From: Candidatus Doudnabacteria bacterium
GTDB taxonomy: Bacteria > Patescibacteriota > JAQUNI01
Direction: 5' to 3'
NCBI GenBank assembly: GCA_041644975.1
Contig: JBAZQX010000005.1
Span: forward strand, 13,068-77,067
Length of the DNA: 64,000 bases
The notes below the pieces were generated by a model that did no database searches, was not told where the DNA came from, and saw only the letters and a list, made by a program, of their open reading frames with translations. Position 1 is the first letter of the stretch. Each line of letters begins with the position of its first letter. Made by a program: the position numbers and the translations under genes. Positions 6,994 through 64,000 of the stretch are shown here, piece after piece.

Positions 6994-7026
6994 ACCCCGT
7001 TAGAGAACAAGATTCTCTAACGGGGT
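6994..7026. repeat. palindromic repeat family 2 (ACCCCGTTAGAGAAC...GTTCTCTAACGGGGT), short copy
   Basis: Perfect hairpin; related copies at 7978-8090, 22684-22716 and 46812-46888. Confidence 0.8.
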
Positions 7027-7117: not shown

Positions 7118-7678
7118 ATGAATATTGAGGTGGAAACTAAAATTCAATTAGAGAGTTTAGAAAAAGTGCGCAAAAAATTAAAGACCATTGGAGGTAGTTT
7201 GAAAGAGTCAATGCGCCAAATTGATGAATATTATGTCCCCTGCCACCGCGATTTTTTCTTAAGCCAACCCTGCGTTGAATGGCTCCGCGTGAGGCAAAAT
7301 CCCGACCGCGCGATTTTTGAATACGACAAATCTATTGTCTGCCGCAAAGACAGCGCCCAAAATTATGCTGAAGAATATGAAGTAGAAGTAAAACAACCCG
7401 AGAACCTTAGAAAAATTCTAAAATTTTTGGATTTCAAAAAAATCGTCACTGTTGATAAACAAAGAGAATATTGGCAATGTGAAGATTTCGAAATCGCTTT
7501 GGATCAAGTCAAAAATCTCGGTTTTTTCATAGAAGTAGAAGCACAAGGCAATTTTCTAAATACTAAAATAGCAAGAGCGGGTTGTGCTCGCTTTTTAACC
7601 CAAAAATTAGGAATCAAGGATTGGCAAAAACGGCAGGTTAAAACCGGGTATCCGGTTTTGCTTTTAAAAAAAATGTAA
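7118..7678 (+). CDS. CYTH-domain protein (triphosphate tunnel metalloenzyme / class IV adenylyl cyclase family)
   Basis: The EVETKIQL...E.E beta-strand start and size are typical of CYTH. Start moved to Met 9 of the track ORF. Confidence 0.65.
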   Translation: MNIEVETKIQLESLEKVRKKLKTIGGSLKESMRQIDEYYVPCHRDFFLSQPCVEWLRVRQNPDRAIFEYDKSIVCRKDSAQNYAEEYEVEVKQPENLRKILKFLDFKKIVTVDKQREYWQCEDFEIALDQVKNLGFFIEVEAQGNFLNTKIARAGCARFLTQKLGIKDWQKRQVKTGYPVLLLKKM

Positions 7679-7684
7679 TGATTA

Positions 7685-7715
7685 GTAGAGACGTTATATT
7701 ACAACGTCTCTATAC
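7685..7715. repeat. palindromic repeat family 1 variant (GTAGAGACG-loop-CGTCTCTAC)
   Basis: Hairpin gtagagacgttatattacaacgtctctatac immediately after the CYTH stop. Confidence 0.8.
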
Positions 7716-7725
7716 GAAAATATAT

Positions 7726-8457
7726 ATGATGAATTCTGATCAAAAAACAATTAAAACATACAATAAAATCGCCAAAGAATACGCCGCCCGCGGTTATAGT
7801 AACCCGCTTTTTTGGCACAGGGAATTTAAAATTTTTCAAAAATTGATTTCGGGGAAAAAGATTATAGACATTGGATGTGGGTCGGGCAAAGATGCATTGC
7901 TGTTTATAAAGAACAAATTCGATTATATTGGCATTGATGCCTCTTCCGGATTGCTTCGCGAAGCGCGCAAGTTCATAAACCCCGTTAGAGAACCTCATTC
8001 TCTAAACCCGTCTAGAAATCTATTTCTAACGGGGTCGGCTTTAAAAAATTCTAACCACCAACTAAAGTCGGTGGCTTTCTCTAACGGGGTAAAAAGCGGC
8101 AAATTTATTTTGATGAATTTCTACAAATTAAATTTTCCCCGAAATCATTTTGACGGCTTTTGGGCTGCTGCTTCCCTCCTGCACATCCCCAAACGCCGCG
8201 TCGCCAAGGTCCTTCGCGCCATTAGAAAAATTATTAAACCCCAAGGCGTAGGATTTATCGCCCTCAAAGAAAAAAGACATCTTGACGAAGGCATCATCAA
8301 AGAAAAAAAACACGGCGGGATTGAGCGGTATTTCGCTTTTTACACTAAATCAGAATTCAAAAAAATTTTAGAACAGAACGGATTTGAAATTTTAAAAAAC
8401 CATATTCGTCAAGAAGAAGATACAAATTGGCTTTGCTATTTTGTGAAGAAAATATAA
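7726..8457 (+). CDS. class I SAM-dependent methyltransferase carrying an in-frame repeat-derived insertion
   Basis: Motif I IIDIGCGSGKDA and post-I IGIDAS. A 38 aa insert is encoded by the family-2 palindromic element. Confidence 0.65.
   Translation: MMNSDQKTIKTYNKIAKEYAARGYSNPLFWHREFKIFQKLISGKKIIDIGCGSGKDALLFIKNKFDYIGIDASSGLLREARKFINPVREPHSLNPSRNLFLTGSALKNSNHQLKSVAFSNGVKSGKFILMNFYKLNFPRNHFDGFWAAASLLHIPKRRVAKVLRAIRKIIKPQGVGFIALKEKRHLDEGIIKEKKHGGIERYFAFYTKSEFKKILEQNGFEILKNHIRQEEDTNWLCYFVKKI
7978..8090. repeat. palindromic repeat family 2, long composite copy inside methyltransferase CDS
   Basis: aaccccgttagagaacctcattctctaaacccgtctagaaatctatttctaacgggg...ctttctctaacggggt. Near-identical to 46812-46888. 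Confidence 0.8.
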
Positions 8458-8475
8458 ACTTACACATCTAATCTT

Positions 8476-9186
8476 ATGACCATCAAAAAGAAAACCTGGC
8501 CAGCGTATTTTGAAAAAGTCGCGAGCGGCAAAAAGAAATTTGATTTGCGCTTAGCGGATTTCAAAATCAAAGAAGGTGATATTTTAATCTTGGAAGAATG
8601 GGATCCTAAAACTCAAAAATACACCGGGCGCAAGATTAAAACGCGCGCGACCTATGTCTTGAAAACAAAAGACTTGCCTTTCCATTCAAAAGCAGAAATC
8701 AAAAAATACGGTCTGCAGGTAATTCAAATTGAACTTACTAAAACGCAAAATCTTGCGTCTTCACATCATTATTTCCCCCGCGGCGTAGAAATAGTCAATG
8801 TCGCGATTATCAAAAATAAAAAAGGTGAAATCCTGATTGCCCGCTCGCCCAAATGGTCAAACAAATGGACTCTCCCCGGCGGCCATTTGGAGCCCGACGA
8901 AAATCTCTTAGCTAGCGCGCAAAGAGAGGCGGAAGAAGAAACAGGTCTCAAAGTAAAACCAGTTAAGATCATTGATTTCAATGAGCTTATTAACTCTCCA
9001 GATTTTCACCGTCCCAGCCACTTTGTTTATTATGATTGTCTCTTTGAATTTGTCAGGGGCAAACTGAAATTAGAAAAACACGAATTATCTGAAGCCAAGT
9101 GGGTGCTGCCAGAAAAGGCGTTAAAACTTGACTTAGCTGACGGCTGTCGCAAAAGTATTCAGAATTATCTAAAATTAAAGATATAG
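8476..9186 (+). CDS. ASCH-like (DUF3850) domain fused to NUDIX hydrolase
   Basis: N-terminal WPAYFEKVASGKKKFDLRLADF...GDILIL (DUF3850/ASCH). C-terminal Nudix box GGHLEPDENLLASAQREAEEETGL. Confidence 0.7.
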   Translation: MTIKKKTWPAYFEKVASGKKKFDLRLADFKIKEGDILILEEWDPKTQKYTGRKIKTRATYVLKTKDLPFHSKAEIKKYGLQVIQIELTKTQNLASSHHYFPRGVEIVNVAIIKNKKGEILIARSPKWSNKWTLPGGHLEPDENLLASAQREAEEETGLKVKPVKIIDFNELINSPDFHRPSHFVYYDCLFEFVRGKLKLEKHELSEAKWVLPEKALKLDLADGCRKSIQNYLKLKI

Positions 9187-9213
9187 TAGAGACAGGTTTT
9201 AAACCTGTCTCTA
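9186..9213. repeat. palindromic repeat family 1 (GTAGAGACAGGTTTTAAACCTGTCTCTA)
   Basis: Perfect hairpin. Its first base is the last base of the Nudix stop TAG. Confidence 0.85.
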
Positions 9214-9293
9214 AAACTATTGCCTTTTTATCTTCATAATGTTATAATACAAACATAAGTAGGGTTTTTCTCAAAAGTGGTATTTATAAAGTA

Positions 9294-9812: not shown

Positions 9813-12797
9813 TTATTTATTGCTTAATTTGGCGAATAAAAAAAATAAAGTAATAAACAGCAAGCCCATTAGAAACGGCGCTGATGATGAAATTAAATTC
9901 CGCTTGCCGGGCTTGAATCTTTTCAGTAAAAGAGAATTAGACACAACCGAAACCGAACTCAAAGCCATTGCCAGCCCGGCTAACTCCGGCTTTAAAATGA
10001 GTCCCGCCCAGGCCAACATTCGAGCCGCGATAGGAATACCAACAATATTATAAAACAAGGCGAAAAACATATTCTGCTTGATTTTAGACACTGTCGCGCG
10101 GCTTAAATCAATGGCTGTCAAAACACTTCTCAAATCGTTTTTAACAATAACAATACCGCCGGTTTCCATTGCCACATCAGCGCCCGAACCCATTGCCACG
10201 CCCAAATCCGCCTGCGCTAAGGCCGGAGCGTCATTGATGCCGTCGCCCACAAAAGCGACAGAACGCTTGCGCGGAGAATTTTTAATTTTTTCTCTGTAAT
10301 CTTCAATTCGTTTCCAATCCGTGATTTTTAATGACGACACCTTAACTCCTTTTTGCAAAAGTTCAACAACTATAGCCTTGTGTTGCGGCAAAACTTCGGC
10401 TAAAACATTTTTAATACCCGCTTGCTTGGCTATTGCCTCGGCGGTTCGGCGATTATCACCGGTAATCATAAAGGTTATTAAACCGCGCTTATGCAAGGCG
10501 CTCACCGTGTCTACGGCGCTTTCTTTAATAATGTCCGCCACTGCCACAATACCTAAAATTTCTTTGTCCGTTGACAAAATCATCGTTGTTTTTCCCTGCT
10601 CCTCCAAGCGCCGCGCTTTTCGTTCAATATTTTCCACATTTAACCCGACAACATCGGCCATTAGTTTGCGATTGCCAAAATAATATTTTTGCCCATCAAT
10701 TTCGCCTTCAACACCGTGTCCGGGAATAGCTCTAAAACCAGCCACCTCTTTTATAAGCGCGGATTCTTCTTGCGCGTATTTAACTATAGCTTCAGCCAAT
10801 GGATGCTCGGACATTTTTTCTAAACTGGCGGCTATGCCGAGCGCTTCATCTTCATCGCCAAACCCGATGCCAATTATATCAGTCACTTGGGGTTTGCCCT
10901 GAGTTAAAGTGCCAGTTTTATCAAAAACAATCATCTTTATTTTGCAGGCAGCTTCCAGCGGCTCGCCCCCTTTAATTAAAATCCCTTGCTCCGCTCCCTT
11001 ACCAGTCCCAACCATAATAGCGGTTGGAGTGGCTAATCCCAAGGCGCACGGGCAAGCGATCACAATCACAGCGGTAAAAGCCATCAAAGCAAAAGCCAAG
11101 TTTGAACCAAGCAGAAAAAACCAAACAAGAAAAGTCAAAACAGCGATACCAAGCACAATCGGCACAAAGCGACTGGAAATTTTATCCGCAAACATCTGAA
11201 TAGGCGCTTTGGAACCCTGGGCGTCTTCAATAAACCGGATAATTTGAGCTAAAGCGGTTTCTTTACCCACCCTGGTCGCTCTAAATTCAAAACTGCCGTG
11301 TTTATTCATAGTAGCGCCAATAACAACATCTCCGACATTTTTTTCCACTGGTATGCTTTCCCCGGTAAGCATTGATTCGTCCACTGAAGAATTGCCCTTG
11401 ACAATTTCGCCGTCAACCGGTATTTTTTCGCCAGGCCGAACCAACACTATGTCTCCCTTTACCACCTGCTCAATCGGAATATCTTCCTGCTTGCCGTCAC
11501 GAAAAACGCGGGCGGTTTTTGGCTGAAGGCCCATTAGTTTTTTAATGGCTTCAGAAGTTTTTCCCTTGGCTTTGGCTTCAAGCCATTTGCCCAAAAGCAC
11601 AAATGAAATTAGAAAAGCCGCTGTTTCAAAATATAAATCAGGTATTTTTTCCCCCATCAAACCAATTAAACTGCCCTTAGAAAAAACATAGCTAAGATAA
11701 GCGAACAAACTGTAAAAAAACGCCGCACTTGTACCAATGGCAATCAAACTGTCCATATTGAATGTTTTCATCCGCAAACTACTCCACGTTCCCTTGTAAA
11801 ACCCGAAACCAATAATGAATTGCACAGGTAAAGTCAAAAGCAAAGAAATAATGCCGATGTATGGCATAACCGCCTTGCCCGGCAAGAAAGGCAAAAATTC
11901 CAGAAGCATAAAATAAAACATCGGCAAGCTCAAGCCGAGTCCCCACAAAAACTTCTTCCAATAATTTTTTATTTCTTTAACTCTTCTTATTTTCTCCGCT
12001 TCAGGGTGGTCTGAACGGTATAGTTCCGCTCTATAACCCGCTTTTTTGACAACATCTAACAAAGCGGCTAAATTAGTCAGCGAACTGTCATAAATTACAC
12101 GCGCTCTGGCTGAAGCAAAATTGACATTGGCTGAAATAATCCCCGGCGCTTTCCGCAGGGCCTTTTCTATCAAGCCGGCGCAAGAAGAACAATGCATACC
12201 ATCTATACTTAATTGCGCTTGTTCTTCCTTTTTCTTAGCCGACAATGGAGGTGAAGCAACCGAAACCGCCTGGCTAGGATATAAAACCAAATCAGCGGCA
12301 TCTTGCTCCGAAGGGCCAAGCAAACGAAAAAGTTTGCCTATGTTGACGGAGCGCAAAAGATTATCCGCCAACTGCTCTATGTTTTTTTGGCCCTGTGGAA
12401 CTTCAATTTCTCCTCTGCGCTGGCGCTTGATTTTGCCTTGAAAATTCGGCTGATTGCCGCTATGACCAAAATTACCTTCTGCTTCCGTAGAGGACTCAAG
12501 CCGAATCTTCAAAGGCGAATTGCTGTCAATCTTTTTTTTTAGCCAAATTGAAGTTGATGATTCTCGCTGGATTTCTTTTGGCTCACGGCCTGTTATTTCC
12601 GCTTCGTAGCCGGCCTTCTTAACCGCCTCTATCAGTAAAGCGTCAGAAACATTTTCATCCGCTTTTACCTCTCCTTTACCCAAAGCGTAATCCACTTTGG
12701 CATATTTCACGCCAGTCAAAGAAGACAGTTCAGCCTCTACGAGTTTTTTGCAAGAAGCGCAATGCATGCCATGAATTTTCAGAATAATTTTTTGCAT
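9813..12797 (-). CDS. copA: copper-translocating P1B-type ATPase with two N-terminal HMA domains
   Basis: Two GMHCxSC metal-binding motifs. CPC in TM6, [15 protein letters not shown]. Confidence 0.9.
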
Positions 12798-21237: not shown

Positions 21238-21268
21238 GTGTAAGACAGGTTTTAAACCTGTCTCTACT
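21238..21268. repeat. palindromic repeat family 1
   Basis: gtgtaagacaggttttaaacctgtctctac. Confidence 0.8.
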
Positions 21269-21405
21269 AAAAATCAGACCGGCGAAAGTCGGTTATAAAA
21301 CCAAAAACCAAAAAAGAAATTATTTTGTGAAATATTATTTTCCATAACTCTTAAGAAGCATTATAACTCACCATAAAATATTGTCAAGGACTTCTTTAAA
21401 TGAAA

Positions 21406-22683: not shown

Positions 22684-22716
22684 AACCCCGTTAGAGAACG
22701 AAGTTCTTTAACGTGG
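22684..22716. repeat. palindromic repeat family 2, short copy
   Basis: aaaccccgttagagaacgaagttctttaacgtgg. Confidence 0.7.
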
Positions 22717-32804: not shown

Positions 32805-33267
32805 AATTATAACTTATAACTTATAACTTGTAACTCAAGACTTCTGAAAAATTTGAGTTACGACGGGTGATGGATTTTAAGTTTTGAAATTATCCCCCAA
32901 AGCATTGCTCCTATTTTTTCAGCCAGATTGATTAATTCACAATATCGCTCTTTATTTAAATATTGCCTGTGATGAGAAAAATAGATAAGATACTTACTTT
33001 CTTTTAATGATCCATATGAAATTTCTAAAAAGTTCCTTAAAGTATTTCTGCTCTGTCGGGCATAACCTTCTATGTAATTCAAAATCACAGACAAAGCCGC
33101 TCTCCGTAATTGCGATATTAAACCAAATTGCTCTATCTTAGGGAAATCTTGAGTATAATCATAAACTTTATTTGCATAAACATCCATAAACTTCTTTAAT
33201 TCCTGATGAAATTGATTTGTCCGTTCCATTCTCTCTTGGGTTATAAGTTACAAGTTATAAGTTACAC
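32805..33267. mobile_element. four-helix-bundle gene cassette bounded by inverted repeats (TTATAACTTATAACTTGTAACTCAAG ... TTATAAGTTACAAGTTATAAGTTACAC)
   Basis: Left arm 32805-32840 and right arm 33241-33267 are reverse complements flanking the single gene 32858-33229. Confidence 0.5.
32858..33229 (-). CDS. four-helix-bundle protein (23S rRNA intervening-sequence protein family, TIGR02436-like)
   Basis: LISQLRRAALSVILNYIEGYARQS, a match to the 23S rRNA intervening-sequence four-helix-bundle family. Confidence 0.7.
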   Translation of the reverse strand: MERTNQFHQELKKFMDVYANKVYDYTQDFPKIEQFGLISQLRRAALSVILNYIEGYARQSRNTLRNFLEISYGSLKESKYLIYFSHHRQYLNKERYCELINLAEKIGAMLWGIISKLKIHHPS

Positions 33268-33983: not shown

Positions 33984-34012
33984 GTAGAGACATCAAAATT
34001 TCGTGTCTCTGC
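33984..34012. repeat. palindromic repeat family 1 variant
   Basis: gtagagacatcaaaatttcgtgtctctgc. Confidence 0.75.
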
Positions 34013-37851: not shown

Positions 37852-38247
37852 AAAAATAGTAACTAGTAACTCGTAGTTGGTAATTAAGACGAACCACCCT
37901 TCGGGCGAGATATTACTATTTACTAATTACTGATTACTTCTCTAACCCTTCACCTTTAGCTAAAGATGAAGGGTCTAATGCCTTATTATATTCCTTCCGA
38001 TCATGAAACTCCTCCTGCTTGCCGTCATTCCACTGTTTCACCGGCCGCAGATAACCAACAACGCGCGAATAAACCTCGCATTTTGTGCGTTGTAATTCTA
38101 AATTTTGTCTTGTCTGATTCATTTTATTTTCCTTACTTAAAAAATTATTTTTCATTTTTGATTGTCTCGCTTCGCGAGATCTCGCGAAGCGATGATGATT
38201 TTTCCTGCCCGCTGTGCTCTTAGCAAAGCATGGCGGGCGGGCACTTT

Positions 38248-41200
38248 TTATTTGTCTGGCTTCGCCAGATCTTGACGAACTGTGTAGCCGATTTCCGCGT
38301 CGCACTTAGGACAATATTCATGCTCGCCGGCGATATAGCCGTGCTTGGGACAGATGCTGAAGGTCGGCGTCAGGGTAAAATAGGGAAGGTGATAGCGGTG
38401 GCAAACCTTTTTAACTAAGCTTTTGACGGCAGTAATATTGGGCAGCCGTTCGCCAATAAAGCCGTGTAATACCGTGCCACCCGTGTAAAGACTCTGCAGG
38501 TCGTCCTGACAATCCAAGGCTTCAAATAAATCATCACTAAAGTTAACGGGAAGATGAGTGGAATTCGTGTAATACGGCTTTGCCCCTGCCTGATAAGCTC
38601 TTTCATTCGCCACAATAATTTTAGGATATTTTTCTTTGTCATATTTGGCGAAATTATAGCTTGTGCCTTCGGCCGGCGTCGCCTCTAAATTATACAATTG
38701 ATTCTCTTCGTTCTGATAATCCATCAGCCTTTCCCGCATAAAAACTAAAGTTTCCTTGGCAAACTTATGACCCTTATTTGTAGAGAGACTCGTTTTAAGA
38801 AGATTAAGGCAGGCTTCATTCATCCCCAAAAGACCAATGGTGTTAAAATGATTGCGCCAGTATTCACCAAAAGATTCTTTAATTTTGTCTAAGTAATGAC
38901 GGCAGTAGGGATAAAGACCTCCTTCGGTGAATTGCTCTAAAGCCTCTCTTTTCACCTGCAGACTTTTGCGCGCAACCGCCATTATTTTCCCCAAACGTTT
39001 AAAGAAATCTTCTTTATCTTTGGCTATATAGCCCAAGCGCGGCATATTGATCGTGACTACCCCGATAGAGCCCGTAAGCGGGTTCGCGCCAAAGAGTCCG
39101 CCGCCTCTCTTACGAAGCTCTCGGTTATCCAGGCGCAAACGACAACACATGCTGCGCGCGTCATCCGGACTCATATCAGAATTGACAAAGTTGGCAAAAT
39201 ACGGGACGCCATATTTAGCGGTCACTTCCCACAAGGGATTCCACTCGCGTTTCCCCCATTGAAAATCGCGGGTGATATTAATTGTGGGAATAGGAAAAGA
39301 AAAAACACGTCCCTTGGCATCGCCTTCAAGCATAGTTTCGCCAAAGGCGCGATTAAAAAAATCCATTTCTTTCTGGAATCGGCCATAAGTTTCATCTTTA
39401 AGCTTTCCACCAATTACCACAGGTTCATTTTTAATATTGGCAGGAATAGTTAAATCTAGTGTAATATTGGTAAAAGGCGTGTTGCCCGTAATAAATACTT
39501 TGCCTTTGCGCCGCGCGATCACGGTTTCATTTTCGGTATGCACTGACCAAATTACTCCATGATAATTGACTTTTTTTACCCGCGCGATATAAGTCTCGGG
39601 ATGCTTAATTATTCTCAAAACATAAATATCCTTCTGGCCAATGGTTGGCTTGCGCGTCATTACTGTAAAGCCATAACCGGCCTGGACCAGTATTATTTGC
39701 AACTGATCCAAAAGATCCAAATCCGTGGTCGCAATTTTACAGCCTTCAAAACCGTCGGCTTTAAGGTAAGTGTCTAAAAATAATCTCGCTTGCCGCTCAC
39801 TCAAATCCTGCAAGCAGGCAGGAATAAAATGTATATTCTCTTTCGTACCAAACCACTTATGAATCACTCTGGAACTTTCCGCATCCATTCTCATTCTTTG
39901 CACCTCACCCCCCAAACTTGCAGTCAAATATTCACTATAATGCAGCTTGAAATGTTTTAATAAATTAATAATTTCATTGTAATTCGCTCTATTTTGAAAC
40001 TTGGATTGATAAATGCTCACACGATAACAGCATCTGCGTTTTCCTGGCCGCTCGATTGAACCTTCACTGATCACCCAAGCTAAAAGTTGAATCTGATCAT
40101 CACTAACCTTCGCATCAAGGTTTGCGTTCTTTCCCGCGACAGGAATAATAAATGGCGACTTAAGTTTTAATATTGCTTCAATCGGCTCTAAAACATAGCC
40201 TCCATTACTAAACAATTTTCTTACTACCCTGTGCCCATGTGAAATTAATTGATCCTGTATTCTATTCTTTAAGTTGTACATTACGCCCTGGTATTGTCTT
40301 TTAAAAACCGAAGTAACCTTTTTTTCTTCTAGTTGGCTGTTTTTCAAATTGAAAGTTTTAATCTCATCGCCGGCTTTCACTTCACTATAGCCTCGCCAAC
40401 CTTCGCTGGTCAAAATCTCTGTGTCCCCTGAAAGACATTGAAAACCTACCCGCGTCGGCACATTCATATTAAACAAAAATTCCTGCAGGCACTGTTTAAT
40501 ATCCCCATAACTTAAATCATCATAGCGGATAAAAGGGGCAAGATAAGTATCAAAATTAGAGAAAGCCACTGCCCCTGCGATTTCGCCCTGCACGGTGTAA
40601 AAGAAATTAACAATCTGACCCAAGGCTGCGCGCAGGTGCTTGGGCGGGTGAGATTCAATCTTGCCGGAAACCCCGCCAAAACCGCGCATCAAAAGATCGC
40701 GTAAATCCCAGCCCGTGCAGTAAGCGGACAAAAGCTGAAGATCATGAATATGAAAATCCCGATTTAGATGCGCGTCCCGCACTTCCGGAGGATAAATCTT
40801 ATGCAACCAATAATGGGAGGAAACCGAGGACGCGACATGATTATTCAGTCCTTGCAGTGAAAAAGTCATATTGCTGTTTTCGCGGACGCGCCAATCCACC
40901 TGTGATAGATAGCCCTCCATTAGTTCGTCGGAGTCAATAAATTTCCGCAAATCCCTTAGTCTCGCGTGTTGATCGCGATAAAGAATATAGGCCTTCGCCG
41001 TCTTCGCGTGTCCTTCTTCAATCAAAACCTTTTCCACCAAATCTTGGATTTGCTCCACGGATGGGATAGTATGGCCATCAAATTTTTCATTTAAAAGGAT
41101 AACTACCTTGGCGGCTAATTGTCTGGCGAGTGCCCTATTCCGCCCCCCCACCGCTTGCGCCGCCTTAAAAATAGCCGTCGCGACTTTTTCTGGTTCAAAA

Positions 41201-41256
41201 GGAACAATCCTGCCATCCCGCTTCTTGATTTCCCTGACCTGTTTTGTTTTTGCCAT
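38248..41256 (-). CDS. nrdD: anaerobic ribonucleoside-triphosphate reductase with N-terminal ATP-cone and an internal LAGLIDADG intein
   Basis: N-terminal ATP-cone; NrdD catalytic regions. A 319 aa insertion begins CLSGDTEI and ends ITGN|T. Confidence 0.9.
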   Translation of the reverse strand: MAKTKQVREIKKRDGRIVPFEPEKVATAIFKAAQAVGGRNRALARQLAAKVVILLNEKFDGHTIPSVEQIQDLVEKVLIEEGHAKTAKAYILYRDQHARLRDLRKFIDSDELMEGYLSQVDWRVRENSNMTFSLQGLNNHVASSVSSHYWLHKIYPPEVRDAHLNRDFHIHDLQLLSAYCTGWDLRDLLMRGFGGVSGKIESHPPKHLRAALGQIVNFFYTVQGEIAGAVAFSNFDTYLAPFIRYDDLSYGDIKQCLQEFLFNMNVPTRVGFQCLSGDTEILTSEGWRGYSEVKAGDEIKTFNLKNSQLEEKKVTSVFKRQYQGVMYNLKNRIQDQLISHGHRVVRKLFSNGGYVLEPIEAILKLKSPFIIPVAGKNANLDAKVSDDQIQLLAWVISEGSIERPGKRRCCYRVSIYQSKFQNRANYNEIINLLKHFKLHYSEYLTASLGGEVQRMRMDAESSRVIHKWFGTKENIHFIPACLQDLSERQARLFLDTYLKADGFEGCKIATTDLDLLDQLQIILVQAGYGFTVMTRKPTIGQKDIYVLRIIKHPETYIARVKKVNYHGVIWSVHTENETVIARRKGKVFITGNTPFTNITLDLTIPANIKNEPVVIGGKLKDETYGRFQKEMDFFNRAFGETMLEGDAKGRVFSFPIPTINITRDFQWGKREWNPLWEVTAKYGVPYFANFVNSDMSPDDARSMCCRLRLDNRELRKRGGGLFGANPLTGSIGVVTINMPRLGYIAKDKEDFFKRLGKIMAVARKSLQVKREALEQFTEGGLYPYCRHYLDKIKESFGEYWRNHFNTIGLLGMNEACLNLLKTSLSTNKGHKFAKETLVFMRERLMDYQNEENQLYNLEATPAEGTSYNFAKYDKEKYPKIIVANERAYQAGAKPYYTNSTHLPVNFSDDLFEALDCQDDLQSLYTGGTVLHGFIGERLPNITAVKSLVKKVCHRYHLPYFTLTPTFSICPKHGYIAGEHEYCPKCDAEIGYTVRQDLAKPDK
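39481..40437 (-). mobile_element. intein (319 aa) with LAGLIDADG homing-endonuclease domain inside nrdD
   Basis: Block A CLSGDTEI. LAGLIDADG-type LLAWVISEGS and LFLDTYLKADGF. C-terminal ...ITGN followed by the +1 Thr. Confidence 0.75.
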
Positions 41257-46811: not shown

Positions 46812-46888
46812 AACCCCGTTAGAGAACCTCGTTCTCTGACCCCGTTTAGAAATTTATTTGTAACGGGATGAACTTTCTCTAACGGGGT
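46812..46888. repeat. palindromic repeat family 2, 77-nt copy
   Basis: aaaccccgttagagaacctcgttctctgaccccgtttagaaatttatttgtaacggg...ctttctctaacggggtaaaa. Confidence 0.8.
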
Positions 46889-50338: not shown

Positions 50339-50482
50339 GGAAATAATTTTAAATTCTAAATTTTCAATTTTAATTCAATTTTAAAATCCTAATTTTAAAT
50401 TTTAAAACCAAGGGAAAGAAGAAAGGGTTTTAAAATTAAAAAATTTAAAATTTGGATTTGATTTAAAATTTAGAATTTAAAA

Positions 50483-51835
50483 TTATTTCTTCCTCATCTT
50501 CGCCAGCCTCTTCTTTACCTCGCTGACGATTTTATCTCTGTTAATAAGTTCCTGCACTCCCGTTTCCATATCGCGTAAAAGAATTGTTTTCTCTAAAGCT
50601 TCTTTCTGACCTAGAATTAAAGTGACTTTAACACCCAGCCGGTCCGCTACTTTGAGTTGAGACTTAAGGCTCCCTCGCGAAAAGGATTCCGAAACAATAA
50701 TGCCGTTTTGGCGAAACTCTTCAAAGAGCACCAAAGCTTTCCTTTTGGCAAGTTCCCCGAGTTGCGCCAGAAAGACGTAGATTTTACGCGAGCGAGGAGG
50801 CTCAATTTTACTTTCCATAAGTTGCATGATAATTCGTTCCATACCGCAGGAGAAACCCACAGCCGGCGTTAATTCGCCTCCTAAATCTTCCACCAAATTA
50901 TCATAACGTCCGCCGCCGCCCAAAGCGATTTGTTTTCCTTCTTCCTGCCCCTCTGCCTTCCCGGGCCAAATTTCAAAAACCGTCTTGGTATAATAATCCA
51001 AGCCTCTTACTAATTTAGAAGTCAAACTGTAGACAATCTCTAATTCATCAAGCTGTTCTAAAACTTCTTTTAGGTGGTCATGGCATTCCTCGCACAGAGA
51101 ATCAATCAAAGCCGGGGCATTATTAGCTAGCCTCTGACATTTTTCCTCTTTACAATCTAAAAGCCGCAAGGGATTGGTTTTGAGCCGTCTCTTACAATGG
51201 GCGCAAAGTCGGGAGGTTTGCCCCTGATAATAACTTAACAAAGTCTCTTTATATGCTGGCCGGCAGGCCACGCAACCTACACTGTTGATTTTAATATTGA
51301 AACTGGACAATCCCAAAGCTTTTAAGATATTACTGGCGACTAAAATCATTTGAGCATCCGAGGTAGGCGAAGCTGACCCTAAAATCTCAAAACCAAATTG
51401 ATGGAACTCCCTAAAACGTCCTTTCTGGGGCTGGTCATACCGAAACATAGGACCAAAATAATAAAGCTTCAACGGTTGAGGCTTATTCACAAGTCCATTT
51501 TCAATGTAGGCGCGGGCGATCCCCGCCGTGTTTTCCGGCCGCAGAGAAATACTGTCTCCTCCCTTATCCTTGAAAGTGAACATCTCCTTCTCCACAATAT
51601 CCGTTCCGCTTCCCACTCCCCGCACAAAAATATTTGTGTCTTCAATAATTGGCGTGTCAATACGGCTAAAACCATATTCAAATGCTATCTTTCTCACCGT
51701 GTCCCGCATAAAATCCCAATAAGGCTGATCATCAGGTAAGATATCTTTTGTTCCTTTAACCGCCCGAAATAAAACTCTGCGACGCAAAGGGAGGGGTTCA
51801 TCTTCGCTCAAATTTTGTTTCTTAAATCGTGGCAT
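50483..51835 (-). CDS. hisS: histidine--tRNA ligase
   Basis: Class II aaRS motifs and a HisRS anticodon-binding C-terminus. Confidence 0.9.
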   Translation of the reverse strand: MPRFKKQNLSEDEPLPLRRRVLFRAVKGTKDILPDDQPYWDFMRDTVRKIAFEYGFSRIDTPIIEDTNIFVRGVGSGTDIVEKEMFTFKDKGGDSISLRPENTAGIARAYIENGLVNKPQPLKLYYFGPMFRYDQPQKGRFREFHQFGFEILGSASPTSDAQMILVASNILKALGLSSFNIKINSVGCVACRPAYKETLLSYYQGQTSRLCAHCKRRLKTNPLRLLDCKEEKCQRLANNAPALIDSLCEECHDHLKEVLEQLDELEIVYSLTSKLVRGLDYYTKTVFEIWPGKAEGQEEGKQIALGGGGRYDNLVEDLGGELTPAVGFSCGMERIIMQLMESKIEPPRSRKIYVFLAQLGELAKRKALVLFEEFRQNGIIVSESFSRGSLKSQLKVADRLGVKVTLILGQKEALEKTILLRDMETGVQELINRDKIVSEVKKRLAKMRKK

Positions 51836-55443: not shown

Positions 55444-58400
55444 TTGTCAACGAGAAAAATGACAAAAATTGAATATTGGACTGGCGTGCCGCAAACGGCT
55501 AAACCTTATGTCATCGCCACCTCCCCCCTTACGCGAAAAGGGGCTGTTTTGCTATGCACTAAAAATCCGAAAACTTGGCTTACCCAAATCCAATTTTGGC
55601 AAAAAAATCTAAATGCGGTAGAGGCAGGTTTAAAACCTGTCTCCGCAATCCTGGAATCAAACGCTGATGTTTTAATAAAAAATTATCCAGTCTTCTCCCG
55701 CCTCAAGGATAAAGAACCGATGTTGGTTTTAGCGCAAACGGAAATCCTCGCTCAAAAATTTCCCTCGCCAAAAGAATTAGAATCCAAAAGCTTGCGGCTG
55801 ACAGCAGGACAGACTCTCAACTTGCCCAAACTGATCGGTTTTCTTTTATCCGCCCATTACCAAAAAGAAAGAGCTGCTCATTCTCCAGGCGCCTTTGCCA
55901 AGCGCGGAGGGATTATTGATATTTTTCCTCTTTTGAAAGACCATCTCATTCGCTTAGAATTATTTGGCAATAAACTGGAAAGCATAAAGATTATCAATAA
56001 CAATAAAATAATTGAACAACCGAACAATGTTACCATCCCGCCTTTAAAAGTCGCGAATCCAACGGGTACTATTTTAGACTGGCTGCCATCTCTTGTTACC
56101 ATCATTCTGGACGAACCCGAACCCGAATCAAAAGAAAGGCTGAAAAAATTTCCTTTGATTGTTTTTGAAGCCTTCCCTTGCGCAGGGCCCGAAAATGTAG
56201 TCCGATTCAGCTTTCAAAATCCTCCCCTAGCCTTGGGTAATCTTCAAACATTAAACAACACTCTCCAACAATTCAGAAAAAAAAAGTATCAAATCTTTAT
56301 CGCCAGCAAGAAATTGCCTGCTATAGAGACAGGTTTTGAACCTGTCTCCGCAATGATAACCCCTTTCTCACTTTCCGCCGGTTTCCAAAATCAAAAAGCA
56401 AAAATTATTGTCTTCACGGATACGGAAATCTTCGGTTTCCGCAAGCAAAAGCGCCGCGAACGTCGTTTTCAAATGGACGCTGAACCTCTGAACGCCCTCA
56501 CGCCCGGAATGTATATCGTGCATATTGACCACGGTATCGGCAGGTTTGCTGGAATGGTTCAAAAAGAGATTGACCACCTCGTAAGAGAATATTTTTGCTT
56601 AGAATACGCTTATAGCGATAAGCTTTTTCTGCCTATTGATCAGGCGGATAAAATCACGCGCTATATTGGGCGGGAAAATCCCGTCATCCACCGCTTGCAT
56701 GGCGGCATTTGGTACCAAATCAAAAAACAAGTTCAGGTTGACGCTAAAAAAATAGCCGCGGAACTTTTAAAAATTCAAGCATCACGCCAAACTGAAAAAG
56801 GGTTTATTTTTACGCCTGACACTCCCCGCCAAAGCACGCTGGAAGCGTCCTTCCCCTACTCCGAGACGCAAGACCAGGAGAAAGCAATTTGCGAGGTAAA
56901 GGCTGATATGGAAAGCGCTCGCCCGATGGACCGTTTAATCTGCGGCGATGTGGGTTTCGGCAAAACCGAAGTCGCCATCCGCGCCGCCTTTAAGGCGTGT
57001 GAAAATAAAAAGCAGGTCGCGCTCCTCGCGCCCACCACCATCCTCGCCCAGCAACACTTTGATACTTTTAAAGAAAGATTGCAATCATTGAATGTGAGGA
57101 TTGGTCTCCTGTCGCGCTTCCAATCCAAAAAGCGCCAAAAACAAACCTTAAAAGATTTAAAACGAGGAAAAATAGACATTGTTATCGGCACCCATCGTCT
57201 CCTCTCTCGCGATGTTTATTTTTTTAATCTAGGTTTGATTATTATTGATGAGGAACAACGTTTTGGCGTGCGCCATAAGGAAAAATTAAAATCGTTGCGA
57301 CCTAACCTTGATATTCTCACCCTTTCCGCGACGCCTATCCCGCGCACCCTGAACTTTACTCTTTCTGGCCTCCGCGATATAAGCAGTATTCAAACCGCGC
57401 CCGCCGGCCGCAAAGCAATCAAGACCTATGTGCATATTGCCGAAAACAAACTCATCCGGAAAGCGATTCGCCGAGAGCTTGAAAGAGAAGGACAAGTGTA
57501 TTATCTTTATAATAAAGTGGAGACGATTCTGCCTTTCGCGAAAAAAATCCAAAAACTTGTTCCCGAAGCCAAAATCGACGTCGCCCACGGTCAGATGAAT
57601 GAACGCGATTTAACCCGCGTAATGCGCCAATTTGATGAAGGAAAAATCCAAATTCTGATCGCCACCACCATTATTGAAAACGGGTTGGACCTCCCGAACG
57701 TGAATACGCTCATTGTGGATAATGCGCCGCAATTCGGCCTCTCCCAGCTCTATCAAATCCGCGGCCGCATTGGCCGAGGAATACGCCAAGCTTACGCCTA
57801 TTTTTTCTATCACCAAGAAAAGCTTCCAGCAGCCGCGAGCAAAAGATTAGAGGCGCTCCTTTCCATGCAGGAACTCGGCTCGGGATTTAACATCGCGATG
57901 CGCGATCTGGAAATCCGAGGATCGGGCAATATCTTGGGTCGTGAACAATCAGGAGATGTCAATTCTATTGGATTATATTTGTACACCAAGCTTCTCGCCC
58001 AAGCAATTCAAGAATTCAAAACCGGCAAGGTTCCTGAACCAATTTTGGAAGTCTCTATTGATCTTCCTCTTCCGGCGCGTTTACCTCAACCTTTCATTCC
58101 CGCCGAGAAAAAACGGCTTTCCCTTTACCACCAACTAAGCGGCATTAATACTTTTGCCGATCTTCGCTGTATCAAACATAAAATTGAAAAAACGTATGGT
58201 CCCTTACCAAAGGAAGTTAGAAACCTCTTCAAGATTCTGAAAATAAAAATTCTCGCCCGTGCCGCAAGAATAAAAGCTATTGATACAATCAAGGTTTGGG
58301 GAATTGATGGCAAGTCCAGACAACGAATAATCTTAGACTTTGCAGAAAAAATGGATTGGGATAAAGTAGACGAACTTTTAAAACATAATCCACATTGGAT

Positions 58401-58497
58401 CATTGGCGAAAATAAAATAAAGATTGATTTTGAGGATTTAGGGGAAAAATGGGTTTGCGAATTAAAAGAGAGTTTAAAAATATTAAAAAGGCAGTAG
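55444..58497 (+). CDS. mfd: transcription-repair coupling factor
   Basis: Helicase motifs GDVGFGKTEVAIRAAF, DEEQRFG, SATPIPRT and QxxGRxGR. C-terminal TRCF domain. Contains two in-frame palindromic-repeat copies. Confidence 0.9.
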   Translation: MSTRKMTKIEYWTGVPQTAKPYVIATSPLTRKGAVLLCTKNPKTWLTQIQFWQKNLNAVEAGLKPVSAILESNADVLIKNYPVFSRLKDKEPMLVLAQTEILAQKFPSPKELESKSLRLTAGQTLNLPKLIGFLLSAHYQKERAAHSPGAFAKRGGIIDIFPLLKDHLIRLELFGNKLESIKIINNNKIIEQPNNVTIPPLKVANPTGTILDWLPSLVTIILDEPEPESKERLKKFPLIVFEAFPCAGPENVVRFSFQNPPLALGNLQTLNNTLQQFRKKKYQIFIASKKLPAIETGFEPVSAMITPFSLSAGFQNQKAKIIVFTDTEIFGFRKQKRRERRFQMDAEPLNALTPGMYIVHIDHGIGRFAGMVQKEIDHLVREYFCLEYAYSDKLFLPIDQADKITRYIGRENPVIHRLHGGIWYQIKKQVQVDAKKIAAELLKIQASRQTEKGFIFTPDTPRQSTLEASFPYSETQDQEKAICEVKADMESARPMDRLICGDVGFGKTEVAIRAAFKACENKKQVALLAPTTILAQQHFDTFKERLQSLNVRIGLLSRFQSKKRQKQTLKDLKRGKIDIVIGTHRLLSRDVYFFNLGLIIIDEEQRFGVRHKEKLKSLRPNLDILTLSATPIPRTLNFTLSGLRDISSIQTAPAGRKAIKTYVHIAENKLIRKAIRRELEREGQVYYLYNKVETILPFAKKIQKLVPEAKIDVAHGQMNERDLTRVMRQFDEGKIQILIATTIIENGLDLPNVNTLIVDNAPQFGLSQLYQIRGRIGRGIRQAYAYFFYHQEKLPAAASKRLEALLSMQELGSGFNIAMRDLEIRGSGNILGREQSGDVNSIGLYLYTKLLAQAIQEFKTGKVPEPILEVSIDLPLPARLPQPFIPAEKKRLSLYHQLSGINTFADLRCIKHKIEKTYGPLPKEVRNLFKILKIKILARAARIKAIDTIKVWGIDGKSRQRIILDFAEKMDWDKVDELLKHNPHWIIGENKIKIDFEDLGEKWVCELKESLKILKRQ
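55618..55646. repeat. palindromic repeat family 1 copy inside mfd CDS, in frame (encodes VEAGLKPVSA)
   Basis: gtagaggcaggtttaaaacctgtctccgc. Confidence 0.8.
56322..56351. repeat. palindromic repeat family 1 copy inside mfd CDS, in frame (encodes IETGFEPVSA)
   Basis: tatagagacaggttttgaacctgtctccgc. Confidence 0.8.
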
Positions 58498-58523
58498 AAA
58501 CAGGTTTAAAAATCTGTCTCTAC
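58494..58523. repeat. palindromic repeat family 1 overlapping the mfd stop codon
   Basis: gtagaaacaggtttaaaaatctgtctctac. The TAG of the repeat is the mfd stop. Confidence 0.8.
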
Positions 58524-58988: not shown

Positions 58989-60079
58989 CCACTGACGCGA
59001 GATACTACCACGCCTTCAATTTGATTCCCAACATCGGGCCATTAAAGTTTAAAAAGCTTATTGCTTATTTTTCGGATTTAGAAAAAGCCTGGTTCGCGCC
59101 CTGCGCGGAAATCATCAGAAGCGGCATTTCGGAGGAAGTGAGCCAAAGAATCTGCGCGGAACGCCAGCGCATCAATCCTGAAACGGAATGGCAAAAATTA
59201 ACAGCGCAGGGGCTTCAAGCCATCACCATTCAAGATAAGGATTATCCCCCTCTCCTCAAAGAAACTTATGACCCGCCGGCAATCTTGTATCTGCGTGGTC
59301 AAATTACAAATCCCAACCAAACCTCTTTAAGCGTAGTCGGCACGCGCAAACCCACATCTTACGGCCGAGAAGTAACATTTCAACTGGTAGGTCTGCTTGT
59401 CCAAGCCCAAATCACCATCGTTTCCGGATTGGCTTTGGGCATTGACGCCCTTAGCCACCAAGCCTGTTTGAATTTTGGCGGCTACACCATTGCGGTTTTG
59501 GGCGGAGGCGTAGACGATCCTTCAATTTATCCACGGGCGAATTGGCAGCTTGCCCAAAACATTATCCAAAAAGGCGGCGCTCTGGTCTCCGAATACCCGC
59601 CCGGCACCAAACCGTTAAAACAAAACTTTCCGCAACGCAACCGCATTATCTCTGGTCTCTCTAAAGGAGCTCTGATTATTGAAGCAGGCGAAAAAAGCGG
59701 CACTTTAATTACCGCGCGCGCCGCTTTAGAACAAAACCGCGAAGTCTTCGCCGTGCCCGGCTCCATTTATAACCCTTGTTCGCGCGGGACTAATTACTTG
59801 ATTAAAATAGGCGCTAAACTGGTAACGAATATCCAAGATATTTTAGAAGAATTGAATTTAAGTGTCTTACAGGAAATCCCGAGAAATCAAAAAATCACCC
59901 CCGATAATCCCGAAGAAGCTTTGGTACTGCAACATCTTTCCGGCGAGCCAATTTACATTGACGAATTAGCCAAAAAAACAAAACTCGCGCCGGCTAAGAT
60001 ATCCACAACATTGACAATCTTAGAAATGAAAGGTATTGTTCGCAATATTGGAAGCGCGAATTATGTGATAGCAAGGTAA
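58985..60079 (+). CDS. dprA: DNA processing protein DprA (Smf)
   Basis: Rossmann-like DprA core VVGTRKPTSYG...GLALGIDA...AVLGGG...VPGS. Confidence 0.85.
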   Translation: MTTDARYYHAFNLIPNIGPLKFKKLIAYFSDLEKAWFAPCAEIIRSGISEEVSQRICAERQRINPETEWQKLTAQGLQAITIQDKDYPPLLKETYDPPAILYLRGQITNPNQTSLSVVGTRKPTSYGREVTFQLVGLLVQAQITIVSGLALGIDALSHQACLNFGGYTIAVLGGGVDDPSIYPRANWQLAQNIIQKGGALVSEYPPGTKPLKQNFPQRNRIISGLSKGALIIEAGEKSGTLITARAALEQNREVFAVPGSIYNPCSRGTNYLIKIGAKLVTNIQDILEELNLSVLQEIPRNQKITPDNPEEALVLQHLSGEPIYIDELAKKTKLAPAKISTTLTILEMKGIVRNIGSANYVIAR

Positions 60080-60217
60080 ATTTTAAATTCTAAATTTTAA
60101 ATCAAATCCAAATTTGAATTTCTTAATTTTAAAACTTTTTTTTCTTTGTCTTAAAATTTAAAATTCAAGCATTTAAAATTGATTTAAAATTAAAAATTTA
60201 GAATTTAAAATTATTAT

Positions 60218-62585: not shown

Positions 62586-63431
62586 TTATTTTACTTTGTC
62601 AAGAATCCCCTCCAATTCCTCATCGGAATAAAATTCAATAGTGATCCTTCCCACTCTGCCATCGCGGGAAACTTTAACCCGCGTGCCCAAAGCCTCTTGC
62701 AAAAGTTCTTCCGCTTCCACCAAGCTTGGGTCTTTGGCTTTAATCTCACGAAGATGCCTTTTCACCGTCACTTTTTTTAAAATCTCTTCGGTTTTGCGCA
62801 CGGACAAACTATCTTGAACAATCTTTTTATACAGCCCTAGTTGTTTCTCGGGATTAGCAAGACCTAAAATTAGTTTAGCGTGACCTTCCGAAATCTTTTC
62901 TTCTTTGATTCCTTTTTGAATTTCTATGGGTAAGTCTAAAAGCCGCAGAATATTCGTAATCGTGCTTCTATTCTTCCCCACTCTTTTTGCAACCTCGTTC
63001 TGGACTAAACCAAATTTCTGAATCAAAGACCGATAACCTTCCGCTTCTTCAATGGGGTTTAAATCTTCGCGCTGCACATTTTCAATAATACTCATCTCTA
63101 GATTATCGCTTTCTTTGCCCGCGTGGATCGCTACCGGCACCCTCTTTAATCCCGCAAGGCGCGCCGCTTCCAGACGCCGCTGTCCCGCGATGAGTTCATA
63201 GTTCCCGTTAATAATCAAAGGCTGCAGGATGCCGTGGGCTTTAATGGAACTTGCGAGCTCCAAAAGTTTCTCCTGGTTAATCTCCTTGCGCGGCTGATTC
63301 GGGTTGGGCTTAATTTCCGAAATCAGAACCTCATCGGCTCGCACTTCCGTTTTTGAATTCTGGACTGATTTTCTGATAGAAATATTAGGGATTAAAGCAG
63401 AGAGTCCCCTGCCTAGACCAATGTGGGGCAT
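62586..63431 (-). CDS. parB: chromosome partitioning protein ParB/Spo0J
   Basis: GLGRGLSALI, LIAGQRRLEAARLAGL and a HTH. Confidence 0.85.
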   Translation of the reverse strand: MPHIGLGRGLSALIPNISIRKSVQNSKTEVRADEVLISEIKPNPNQPRKEINQEKLLELASSIKAHGILQPLIINGNYELIAGQRRLEAARLAGLKRVPVAIHAGKESDNLEMSIIENVQREDLNPIEEAEGYRSLIQKFGLVQNEVAKRVGKNRSTITNILRLLDLPIEIQKGIKEEKISEGHAKLILGLANPEKQLGLYKKIVQDSLSVRKTEEILKKVTVKRHLREIKAKDPSLVEAEELLQEALGTRVKVSRDGRVGRITIEFYSDEELEGILDKVK

Positions 63432-63472
63432 AATTTTATATGGAATCAAAAATTATAGATTAGGTGAAGATT

Positions 63473-64000
63473 TTAATTCATGATTCCTGATTCATTATTC
63501 AAACTAATTATTTCTTGCGCCAGATGTTTGTATGCTCGCGCGCCCTTGCAGAGAGGTTCATAATTTAAAATTGCCTGACCAAAGCTCGGCGCTTCAGCCA
63601 GCCGCACGTTTCTTGGAACAATGGTTTCAAATACTTTGCCGGGAAAATTTCTCTGCACCTCGCGCACCACGTCATTGGCAATGCGTGTTTTTTTGTCCCG
63701 CATCGTAAGCACCACTCCCAAAATATTCAAACTGGGATTCAAATTCTTCTGCACTAAATCAATAGTGTATAAAAGTTGGGAAAGTCCTTCTAGGGCATAA
63801 TACTCGCACTGCACGGGAATAACGACGCTGTCCGCCGCCGTGAGCGCGTTCACGGTCAAAATTCCCAAAGAAGGCGGCGAGTCAATCATCACGTAATCAT
63901 AATCCCCTTTAAGCGGGGTTAAAACTTTTTTCAATAAAAATTCTCGGTCAGGCAAGCTGACCAATTCTACAGCCGCGCCGGCCAAATCCGGCGAAGCTGG
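63473..64000 (-). CDS. parA: chromosome partitioning ATPase ParA/Soj (5' end beyond window)
   Basis: MIDSPPSLGILTVNAL and the C-terminal ParA pattern. The Walker A region lies outside the window. Confidence 0.85.
   Translation of the reverse strand, partial: PASPDLAGAAVELVSLPDREFLLKKVLTPLKGDYDYVMIDSPPSLGILTVNALTAADSVVIPVQCEYYALEGLSQLLYTIDLVQKNLNPSLNILGVVLTMRDKKTRIANDVVREVQRNFPGKVFETIVPRNVRLAEAPSFGQAILNYEPLCKGARAYKHLAQEIISLNNESGIMN

Follow-up and report, generated by a model that had tools for sequence, protein, structure and literature searches.

The window analysed here, a stretch of 64,000 nucleotides (nt) from a Candidatus Doudnabacteria bacterium, contains a gene for a class I S-adenosylmethionine (SAM)-dependent methyltransferase with a palindromic element inside its coding sequence. 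The gene lies on the forward strand at 7726-8457, stop codon included, and encodes a protein of 243 amino acids. Position 7726 is the start in the public record, and 7678 is an alternative start upstream of it. An NCBI protein from a Candidatus Doudnabacteria metagenome-assembled genome (MAG) was 100% identical to the gene product (P0001). The Pfam profiles Methyltransf_25, Methyltransf_23, Methyltransf_11, Methyltransf_31 and Methyltransf_12 matched the protein, the motifs DIGCGSG and IDAS were invariant in the family alignment and the alpha/beta core was modelled with confidence, as expected for a class I enzyme. The original prediction had placed a palindromic element inside this open reading frame (ORF). 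This was confirmed, as the ORF continues through the element without a stop and the methyltransferase profiles are broken exactly there.

When 20 members of the methyltransferase family were aligned, 38 residues between ...EARKF and VKSGKF... were found only in the window protein. They read INPVREPHSLNPSRNLFLTGSALKNSNHQLKSVAFSNG and were missing from all 19 homologues, including the closest one (P0002), which is 91% identical over the aligned residues. This homologue is encoded on a syntenic contig of a related Patescibacteria MAG in the gene order ABC transporter, CYTH, methyltransferase, DUF3850/NUDIX, RRM and HMA ATPase. An insert of 38 amino acids had been predicted and the length was correct, whereas the peptide string given for it had 43 residues because the native VKSGK was included.

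The homologue comparison, proposed as a check, gave the same answer at the DNA level. In the sister genome L001 the orthologous site is empty (AAGTTC|GTAAAAAGCGG), and the DNA encoding P0002 reads AAGTTC GTAAA AAGCGG. The filled site in the window reads AAGTTC ATAAA, then CCCC...GGGG, then TAAA AAGCGG, with TAAAAAGCGG to the right of the element and TAAA duplicated around the insert. The GTAAA target is read here as Val-Lys codons of the methyltransferase. Blastn of the window against L001 returned two collinear blocks that overlapped at the breakpoint by the five bases GTAAA. From the empty site and the breakpoint, the insertion of 114 nt or 38 codons (7975-8088, forward strand) is composed of a 110-nt element (7980-8089) and a duplicated TAAA, the two repeats of which stand at 7976-7979 and 8090-8093. 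The predicted composite copy of about 113 nt was therefore rightly called composite and was given a slightly wrong length.

The extra segment could in principle be a functional loop specific to this lineage, or an artefact of assembly caused by the repeat. MAG assemblies can mis-join at repeats, and some of the homologues do have extra segments. However, perfect family ends and a target duplication were found at a collinear breakpoint, the sister is about 93% identical in nucleotides across the shared region and the same sequence stands in intergenic DNA elsewhere in the window. A chimeric join would also not be expected to keep both the frame and the duplication, and we consider this explanation highly improbable. 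We conclude that the 114 nt at 7975-8088 very probably represent a recent in-frame insertion into GTAAA of a mobile, non-coding and hairpin-forming element that resembles a miniature inverted-repeat transposable element (MITE).

The element proper runs from CCCC to GGGG on the forward strand (CCCCGTTAGAGAAC...TTCTCTAACGGGG), and its terminal inverted repeats are perfect 14-nt arms, ACCCCGTTAGAGAA and TTCTCTAACGGGGT. The left terminal arm ACCCCGTTAGAGAAC (7979-7993) can pair with either of two partners. One is a partial copy of the right arm (7998-8005), which closes hairpin 1 over the loop CTCA (7994-7997), and the other is the distal right terminal arm CTTTCTCTAACGGGGT (8075-8090). Behind hairpin 1 follow a nested mini-hairpin of 30 nt (8006-8035, ACCCGTCTAGAAAT-CTA-TTTCTAACGGGGT) that belongs to a GAAAT variant subfamily, a spacer (8036-8054) and a 3' module hairpin CCACCAACTAAAGTCGGTGG (8055-8074), the latter being common to copies in Omnitrophota and other phyla. 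The copy is thus composite, with a canonical backbone of about 82 nt and the nested mini-hairpin, which the canonical copies lack. In pairwise alignments with a canonical copy (L078) and with a 62-nt copy of L001 the nested hairpin fell exactly between ...CTAA and CGG.... The GAAAT variant arms recur in the window at 2421-2496 and 46841-46868. The single-stranded insert has a predicted folding energy of -43.4 kcal/mol (z = -7.0).

The consequence for the enzyme was studied with an AlphaFold model of the host protein, which had a mean pLDDT of 85, a pTM of 0.81 and a confident core. Residues 90-122 in the insert had a pLDDT below 50 and no secondary structure, between a helix at 74-84 and a strand at 126-129. 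The insert is therefore predicted to occupy a surface loop between helix B and strand 3 and to be disordered, in agreement with the position in a loop that the original prediction had asked to verify by modelling. The standard topology of class I methyltransferases puts this loop where strand 3 begins, at its N-terminal end, on the side of the sheet away from the cofactor-binding (SAM) edge.

Visible signs of a pseudogene were not found in the gene. All 34 invariant columns of the alignment were intact in the window protein, no lineage-specific losses occurred at conserved positions and, where the sister proteins differ, the window protein usually holds the family consensus. The dN/dS between the sister methyltransferases was 0.29, at a dS of about 0.15 and a nucleotide identity of 94%. 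Among the six reading frames of the insert only one is open, and this is the frame in use. The intact residues, the dN/dS and the sole open frame are more in keeping with a tolerated insertion than with a gene that has died. Insertions would land at any target, and the survivors would be those that keep the frame and sit in a permissive loop. Since only such insertions survive, the enzyme probably still works with a floppy loop of 38 residues, as far as can be judged from the sequence and the predicted model.

Alternatively, the methyltransferase was inactivated by the insertion and is a young pseudogene whose frame is still open by chance. The insertion is recent, being absent at a dS of about 0.15, and because it is young, decay might not yet show. 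In addition, a disordered loop of 38 residues and an mRNA structure of -43 kcal/mol could impair folding or translation. We regard inactivation as unlikely, since the one open insert frame of six is the one used, as survivorship under selection predicts, and the invariant residues are all intact with the conserved sites at the consensus. Two observations from other genomes also speak against it. A methyltransferase homologue (P0018) independently carries an insert in the same loop, and an apparently essential gene of the aminoacyl-tRNA synthetase (aaRS) type bears a copy of the element; both are described below.

A further possibility is a removal or bypass of the element after transcription, as an intron or by a translational hop, giving a protein without the insert. 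The long outer stem would juxtapose both junctions and both TAAA repeats, and in fungal mitochondrial genes palindromic inserts are bypassed by ribosomes. However, the Rfam ribozyme and intron families did not match, the open frame makes a removal unnecessary, most copies of the element are intergenic and no removal or bypass mechanism is known in bacteria for elements of this size. This explanation is barely credible.

Further copies of the element are present in the window. The core 13-mer CCCCGTTAGAGAA was found 14 times with up to 2 mismatches where 1.45 matches were expected, and none of 100 shuffled sequences reached 14. A repeat finder clustered copies at 6994, 7979, 22685 and 46813. 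The three that had been predicted besides the methyltransferase copy are real, and a variant copy at 2420-2497 was found in addition, which makes five family loci in 64 kb. The copy at 6994-7026 is a simple hairpin of 33 nt with TTTA on both flanks, between divergent ABC ATPase and CYTH genes. At 22685-22716 a degenerate simple copy ACCCCGTTAGAGAACGAAGTTCTTTAACGTGG is intergenic. The variant subfamily is represented at 2420-2497 by a 78-nt copy (ACCCCATTAGAAAT...ATTTCTAACGGGGT) that is flanked by TTCA on both sides and located between CobS-like and DBI_PRT-like genes. The copy at 46813-46888 (forward strand, 76 nt, intergenic, TAAA on both flanks) is composite and, compared with the methyltransferase copy, shows 85% identity over the first 68 nt of the latter. 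It contains the nested hairpin and lacks the 3' module hairpin, and because the nested hairpin is shared in this form, we conclude that the composite was copied as a unit.

Over about 3 kb, three differences in element content separate the two sister genomes. L001 lacks the methyltransferase copy of the window. The window lacks a 62-nt copy that in L001 directly follows the methyltransferase stop and whose TAAA flank there includes the stop codon. The third difference is the copy at 6994, intact in the window and degenerate in L001. Because the copies differ between two sister genomes, the family moved recently. The elements had been called active, and such presence-absence differences between the sisters lend this indirect support.

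To follow the family beyond the window, one genome per species (596 Gb) was scanned for the arm ACCCCGTTAGAGAA, which was found at 115 loci at least; these were analysed as 8-kb pieces. By our own estimate, 596 Gb should contain about 4,400 single matches by chance alone, and a single match therefore means little. The counts of loci and copies given from here on are among the matches listed. Paired inverted arms within 320 nt were found at 63 loci, and together with the window these provided a set of 72 copies. The hosts of paired arms include many Omnitrophota, among them the complete genome of Candidatus Velamenicoccus archaeovorus. Many classes of the Patescibacteria are represented (Doudna-, Uhr-, Kaiser-, Moran-, Nomura-, Sung-, Nealson- and Saccharibacteria), as are Planctomycetota, Desulfobacterota/'Deltaproteobacteria', Nitrospirota and one Methanosarcinales MAG. 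Judged from these sequence matches, the family is found in at least five bacterial phyla and is not specific to one genome.

The copies were 30-316 nt long. The longer ones are built alike. The left arm is followed by a 4-nt loop and a partial copy of the right arm, then in some copies by a middle hairpin whose loop GG-CATTAAA-CC is conserved, and lastly by the 3' module hairpin and the right arm. The inner hairpins persist across the phyla while their stems change (CCACCGAC/GTCGGTGG, CCCCCCAAC/GTTGGGGG and GCTGC/GCAGC). An alignment of nine long copies with MAFFT and RNAalifold gave only three compensated pairs, a formal count of covariation that is weak because the interiors align poorly. 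An attempt to determine the strand of the functional hairpin from the asymmetry of G-T and A-C pairs gave mixed signals and was abandoned, the sample being biased by the search with exact arms. At gathering thresholds no Rfam family was found in the window and three loci, a permissive scan of one element gave chance-level matches only, and a scan of the window for tRNA and tmRNA found none.

Perfectly repeated 4-nt flanks were observed for 49 of the 72 copies. The most frequent tetramers were TAAA (28), TTTA (8) and TGAA (7), and TTCA, TTGA, TCAA, TTAA, TATA and TTTG were seen once each. A G is preferred just before the T-R-A-A target. When the copies were oriented by their internal asymmetry, (G)TRAA was on the same side in all 26 orientable cases, and we conclude that the insertion is oriented relative to the asymmetric target. 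At one locus (L105, 6071-6290 and 7113-7221) a 109-nt subfamily is arranged in tandem, where neighbours share a single TGAA and all three copies are flanked by TGAA. These tandems fit an insertion into the G-TRAA site that each element makes at its own right end.

Copies that keep a reading frame were found elsewhere. Most copies are intergenic, and four copies with exact arms are inside long ORFs, all with a length that keeps the frame. Besides the methyltransferase copy, these are in an aaRS gene (L083), in a giant ORF of more than 2,666 amino acids (L097) and in a prepilin leader of a Saccharibacteria genome (L111, 2444-2525). The L083 copy has 49 nt (TPLEKSYPDEHSSLTG, 7129-7177) and is in frame in a class II aaRS of the prolyl-tRNA synthetase type of an Omnitrophota MAG, with the Pfam domains tRNA-synt_2b and HGTP_anticodon; this gene is presumably essential. 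The element arms are open in two of the three frames, as TPLE...SLTG or as NPVRE...FSNG, and this makes survival in frame possible. A search with the insert peptide found one ORF of 74 amino acids among 1.84 billion representative proteins, and a search with the peptide of the other frame found six tiny ORFs. Capture into real proteins is rare, because the peptide searches found only tiny ORFs called on the elements. Several of these have been annotated by public gene callers (P0121-P0127); they are 43-74 amino acids long, are translations of the element (...FTPLEKATDFNRW...SSLTGFT...) and represent spurious 'hypothetical proteins'.

Four further copies, all from Omnitrophota, are in prepilin-like leader peptides (L079, 5798-5849; L007, 899-1013; L032, 7439-7586; and L099). 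The assignment as prepilin rests on the Pfam family N_methyl for L079 and L111 and on the sequence motif for L007, L032 and L099. The adjoining genes encode PilB/GspE- and PilT-like ATPases, and pilins and pilus ATPases are recurrent neighbours of the element. In the prepilin copies the element end ACG GGG together with the duplicated TTTAC is predicted to remake the G|FT cleavage motif (...FTPLEK...SLTG|FTLIEL...). The 5' region of the pilin genes, GG-TTTAC-CCTGATTGAG, resembles two abutted element ends and may be a hot spot for insertion.

The homologue P0018, which comes from another metagenome, carries two palindromic insertions in frame with arms different from those of the window family (L117, 1192-1256 and 1393-1421). 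The first, GGTAAA|CCCCCACAC...GTGTGGGGG|TAAA, has the same CCCC and GGGG ends and the same GTAAA and TAAA flanks. The second, GTAAA|CCCCCACATC...GGTGTGGGGG|TACA, interrupts the very loop that carries the insert of the window protein, between helix B and strand 3. Since P0018 acquired its insert there independently, we consider this loop permissive. The two insertions point to a wider group of CCCC-hairpin-GGGG elements that would target GTAAA.

For the mobilisation we favour an enzyme encoded elsewhere that would move the element in trans after a 4-nt staggered cut at T-R-A-A, and this enzyme would most likely be a DDE-type transposase. With a DDE-type transposon, the varied tetramers repeated on both sides find their simplest explanation, as a true duplication. 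Four of the five characters of a MITE were found, namely a short length without own coding capacity (five of the six frames are stopped), inverted repeats, a duplication verified by the empty site and dispersed copies. The fifth, a parent insertion sequence with the same ends, was not found.

Several results weigh against this reading. Among the 115 loci no pairs of ends more than 320 nt apart were present, which is a weak point as the loci were sampled as 8-kb pieces. Pfam scans of 55 of the 56 window ORFs, all except the HMA ATPase ORF at 9816-12797, showed no transposase, integrase or HUH family; 8 of the 55 matched no family. The ORFs neighbouring the copies contained no recurrent transposase. 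The viral, plasmid and phage collections that were searched yielded zero copies. A tblastn search with an ISEcp1-like transposase gave no match and was uninformative. A DDE transposon whose ends are symmetric would not usually be so strictly oriented on an asymmetric target. Hairpins that keep their structure while the sequence changes between phyla suggest a recognition of the folded single strand, and 33 nt seem too little for a double-stranded cut-and-paste reaction, though copies of this length may be deletion derivatives.

The same insertion could have been made by an element that moves as folded single-stranded DNA via an HUH-type enzyme. Such systems are the repetitive extragenic palindromes with their tyrosine transposases (REP/REPIN-RAYT) or the palindrome-associated transposable elements (PATEs) derived from IS200/IS605. 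The enzyme would cut beside a hairpin at GTAAA and paste 3' of another GTAAA, and the flanking repeat would then consist of the target and the element's own cleavage motif. This model is better for the fixed orientation on the penta-nucleotide in 26 of 26 copies, for the hairpins that change their stems across phyla and conserve the loop GG-CATTAAA-CC, and for the 33-nt copies. The subfamilies tend to one type of flank, as do the three TGAA copies in tandem in L105, and a range over phyla that possibly includes an archaeal MAG (L058) is typical of IS200/IS605. On the other hand, both flanks co-vary among at least nine tetramers, which a true duplication gives automatically. The GTAG-type motif is absent, and the outer arms can pair in the manner of terminal inverted repeats, a feature foreign to IS200/IS605 elements. 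The only HUH gene seen is a resident pseudogene of L001 that is tied to a GTAG...CTAC family, and no homologue of this gene was found in the window or at the 115 loci. We consider an HUH-type mobilisation possible and lean against it.

This HUH gene was examined as a candidate mobiliser. A segment of about 670 nt in L001 (10646-11320) is absent from the window at 8457-8476 and holds the 62-nt element copy and, 41 nt downstream of it, a RAYT/IS200-like HUH pseudogene (10748-11320). The pseudogene has the motifs MPNHMHGII and RFYDHIIRNE, a TGA in place of a Trp codon (FQ*QSRFYDH) and a palindrome GTAGAGACGTTGCAATGCAACGTCTCTAC of the window's other family. Its relatives are found at the same locus in L118 and L119, there without the element, and elsewhere are flanked by GTAGGGGC...GCCCCTAC (L121, L128/129). 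Because these relatives are flanked by GTAG...CTAC repeats, the HUH gene belongs with the other palindrome family of the window. It was rejected as the mobiliser, being a resident syntenic pseudogene that is linked to the GTAG...CTAC palindromes.

That other family, GTAGAGAC(N)GTCTCTAC, starts with GTAG like REP and is present in the window at 7685-7713, 9186-9214, 21243-21269, 33984-34012 and 58494-58523, one copy being just upstream of the methyltransferase start. Two more copies are in frame in mfd (55444-58497), at 55619-55645 and 56324-56350, where they are read as VEAGLKPVS and IETGFEPVS.

A resemblance of the element to integron attC sites (GTTRRRY/RYYYAAC) was also considered and rejected, as the boxes are in the wrong order. 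A more far-reaching idea is that the CCCC-hairpin-GGGG elements and sister families such as the one in P0018 constitute a new class of mobile elements recognised by their structure. They would be mobilised as folded single strands, either as DNA or perhaps through an RNA stage, and would enter GTRAA in a single orientation with the help of an enzyme from outside the families so far linked to MITEs. Spreading among distant phyla that have sediment and groundwater habitats in common, the ultra-small Patescibacteria and the Omnitrophota among them, they would use prepilin leaders (GG-TTTAC-CC) as hot spots. We hold this idea to be speculative and rather doubtful, and the MITE-like insertion with an enzyme acting in trans is the reading we keep.

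Other features of the window were recorded. Inverted repeats of 31 nt at 32810-32840 and 33234-33264 (TAACTTATAACTTATAACTTGTAACTCAAGA, 90% complementary) surround an ORF at 32861-33229, which is a small gene of the '23S rRNA intervening sequence protein' or bAvd-like family. NrdD appears split on the reverse strand at 37937-41256, where an ORF of 1002 amino acids matches the Pfam family NRDD in two stretches up to profile position 531 and a separate, overlapping ORF of 123 amino acids covers the final 30 positions of the profile. The split could stem from a frameshift, from an insertion or from an intein-like interruption. Two intergenic regions some 9.6 kb from each other (50340-50490 and 60077-60215) contain long A/T-rich inverted-repeat blocks of the TAAATTTTAAATT type, whose arms of 60-90 nt are 75-81% complementary both inside a region and from one region to the other. 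The reverse strand encodes nearly every gene between 9.8 and 52.6 kb and the forward strand those between 52.6 and 62.5 kb, with the switch at about 52600, and parB/parA, topoisomerase I and dprA are at the right end of the window (62589-63985). The strand switch and the parB/parA neighbourhood may mark the vicinity of the replication origin, which bears on any reading of a strand bias of the elements.

Taken together, our results indicate that even the very small genomes of Patescibacteria harbour mobile repeats which were active recently and make real proteins longer, as the Rickettsia palindromic elements (RPEs) do in Rickettsia. The family provides a sequence marker common to Omnitrophota, Patescibacteria, Planctomycetota, Desulfobacterota and Nitrospirota, which suggests that very distant lineages exchange genes or have a mobilising enzyme in common. 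With an insertion that is oriented at GTRAA and with conserved hairpins, the mechanism of transposition is open to direct tests. For annotation it matters that the elements inflate protein lengths, split domain matches and spawn spurious small ORFs, and they mark loops that tolerate insertions. A literature search with the sequence strings of the element found none of them in the papers covered, and a keyword search found nothing on such elements in Patescibacteria or Omnitrophota. The family, its occurrence in Patescibacteria, its breadth of at least five phyla, the oriented GTRAA target and the recurrent capture in prepilin leaders appear to be undescribed, whereas palindromic mobile elements that are tolerated in frame in surface loops are already known as a type of event.

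Among the known systems, the bacterial MITEs (Correia/NEMIS, ERIC, BOX/RUP and Nezha) are like this family in being small and non-coding, with inverted ends, a target duplication, many copies, nested or composite forms and hairpins. However, they are confined to a genus or family and mostly tied to a parent insertion sequence, and Correia elements duplicate TA. The family described here duplicates T-R-A-A and inserts in one orientation; no parent was found for it, and its ends recur in at least five phyla.

The REP/REPIN-RAYT systems and the PATEs of IS200/IS605 are also based on hairpins and have composite arrangements, and IS200/IS605 elements are oriented beside a short fixed motif. In contrast to REP/REPIN-RAYT, the ends here are (T)AAA-CCCC without GTAG, the flanks are duplicated and the copies are not exclusively extragenic. 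The RAYT-like gene of the sister genome pairs with the other palindrome family, GTAGAGAC...GTCTCTAC. With the PATEs only the oriented insertion is shared, as terminal inverted repeats and a duplication are present here and absent there, although in a PATE-style reinterpretation the 'duplication' could be the target plus the element end. The CC(C)...(G)GG ends and the A/T-rich duplication of 4-5 nt (TTAA for piggyBac) may resemble those of IS1380 and piggyBac-type elements. These elements are not known to insert in one orientation only, and no transposase of the IS1380 or piggyBac type was found near any of the copies. The GC clusters of yeast mitochondria are short mobile palindromes as well, with short direct repeats at their flanks, and can sit in frame, as in var1; they are organellar and unrelated in sequence.

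The closest parallel at the protein level is provided by the RPEs. These are short palindromes found in intergenic regions and in frame in unrelated genes, at positions judged compatible with the fold (review PMC10969869). As in the methyltransferase, a peptide is added in frame at permissive positions, with the same consequence for the protein. The RPEs are about 150 bp long and have been described in Rickettsia only, whereas the host here is a Candidatus Doudnabacteria, and the sequences appear unrelated. Unlike the RPEs, the family of the window is characterised by inverted ends of 14 nt, a 4-nt duplication at the flanks, a fixed orientation to the target and a distribution over several phyla.

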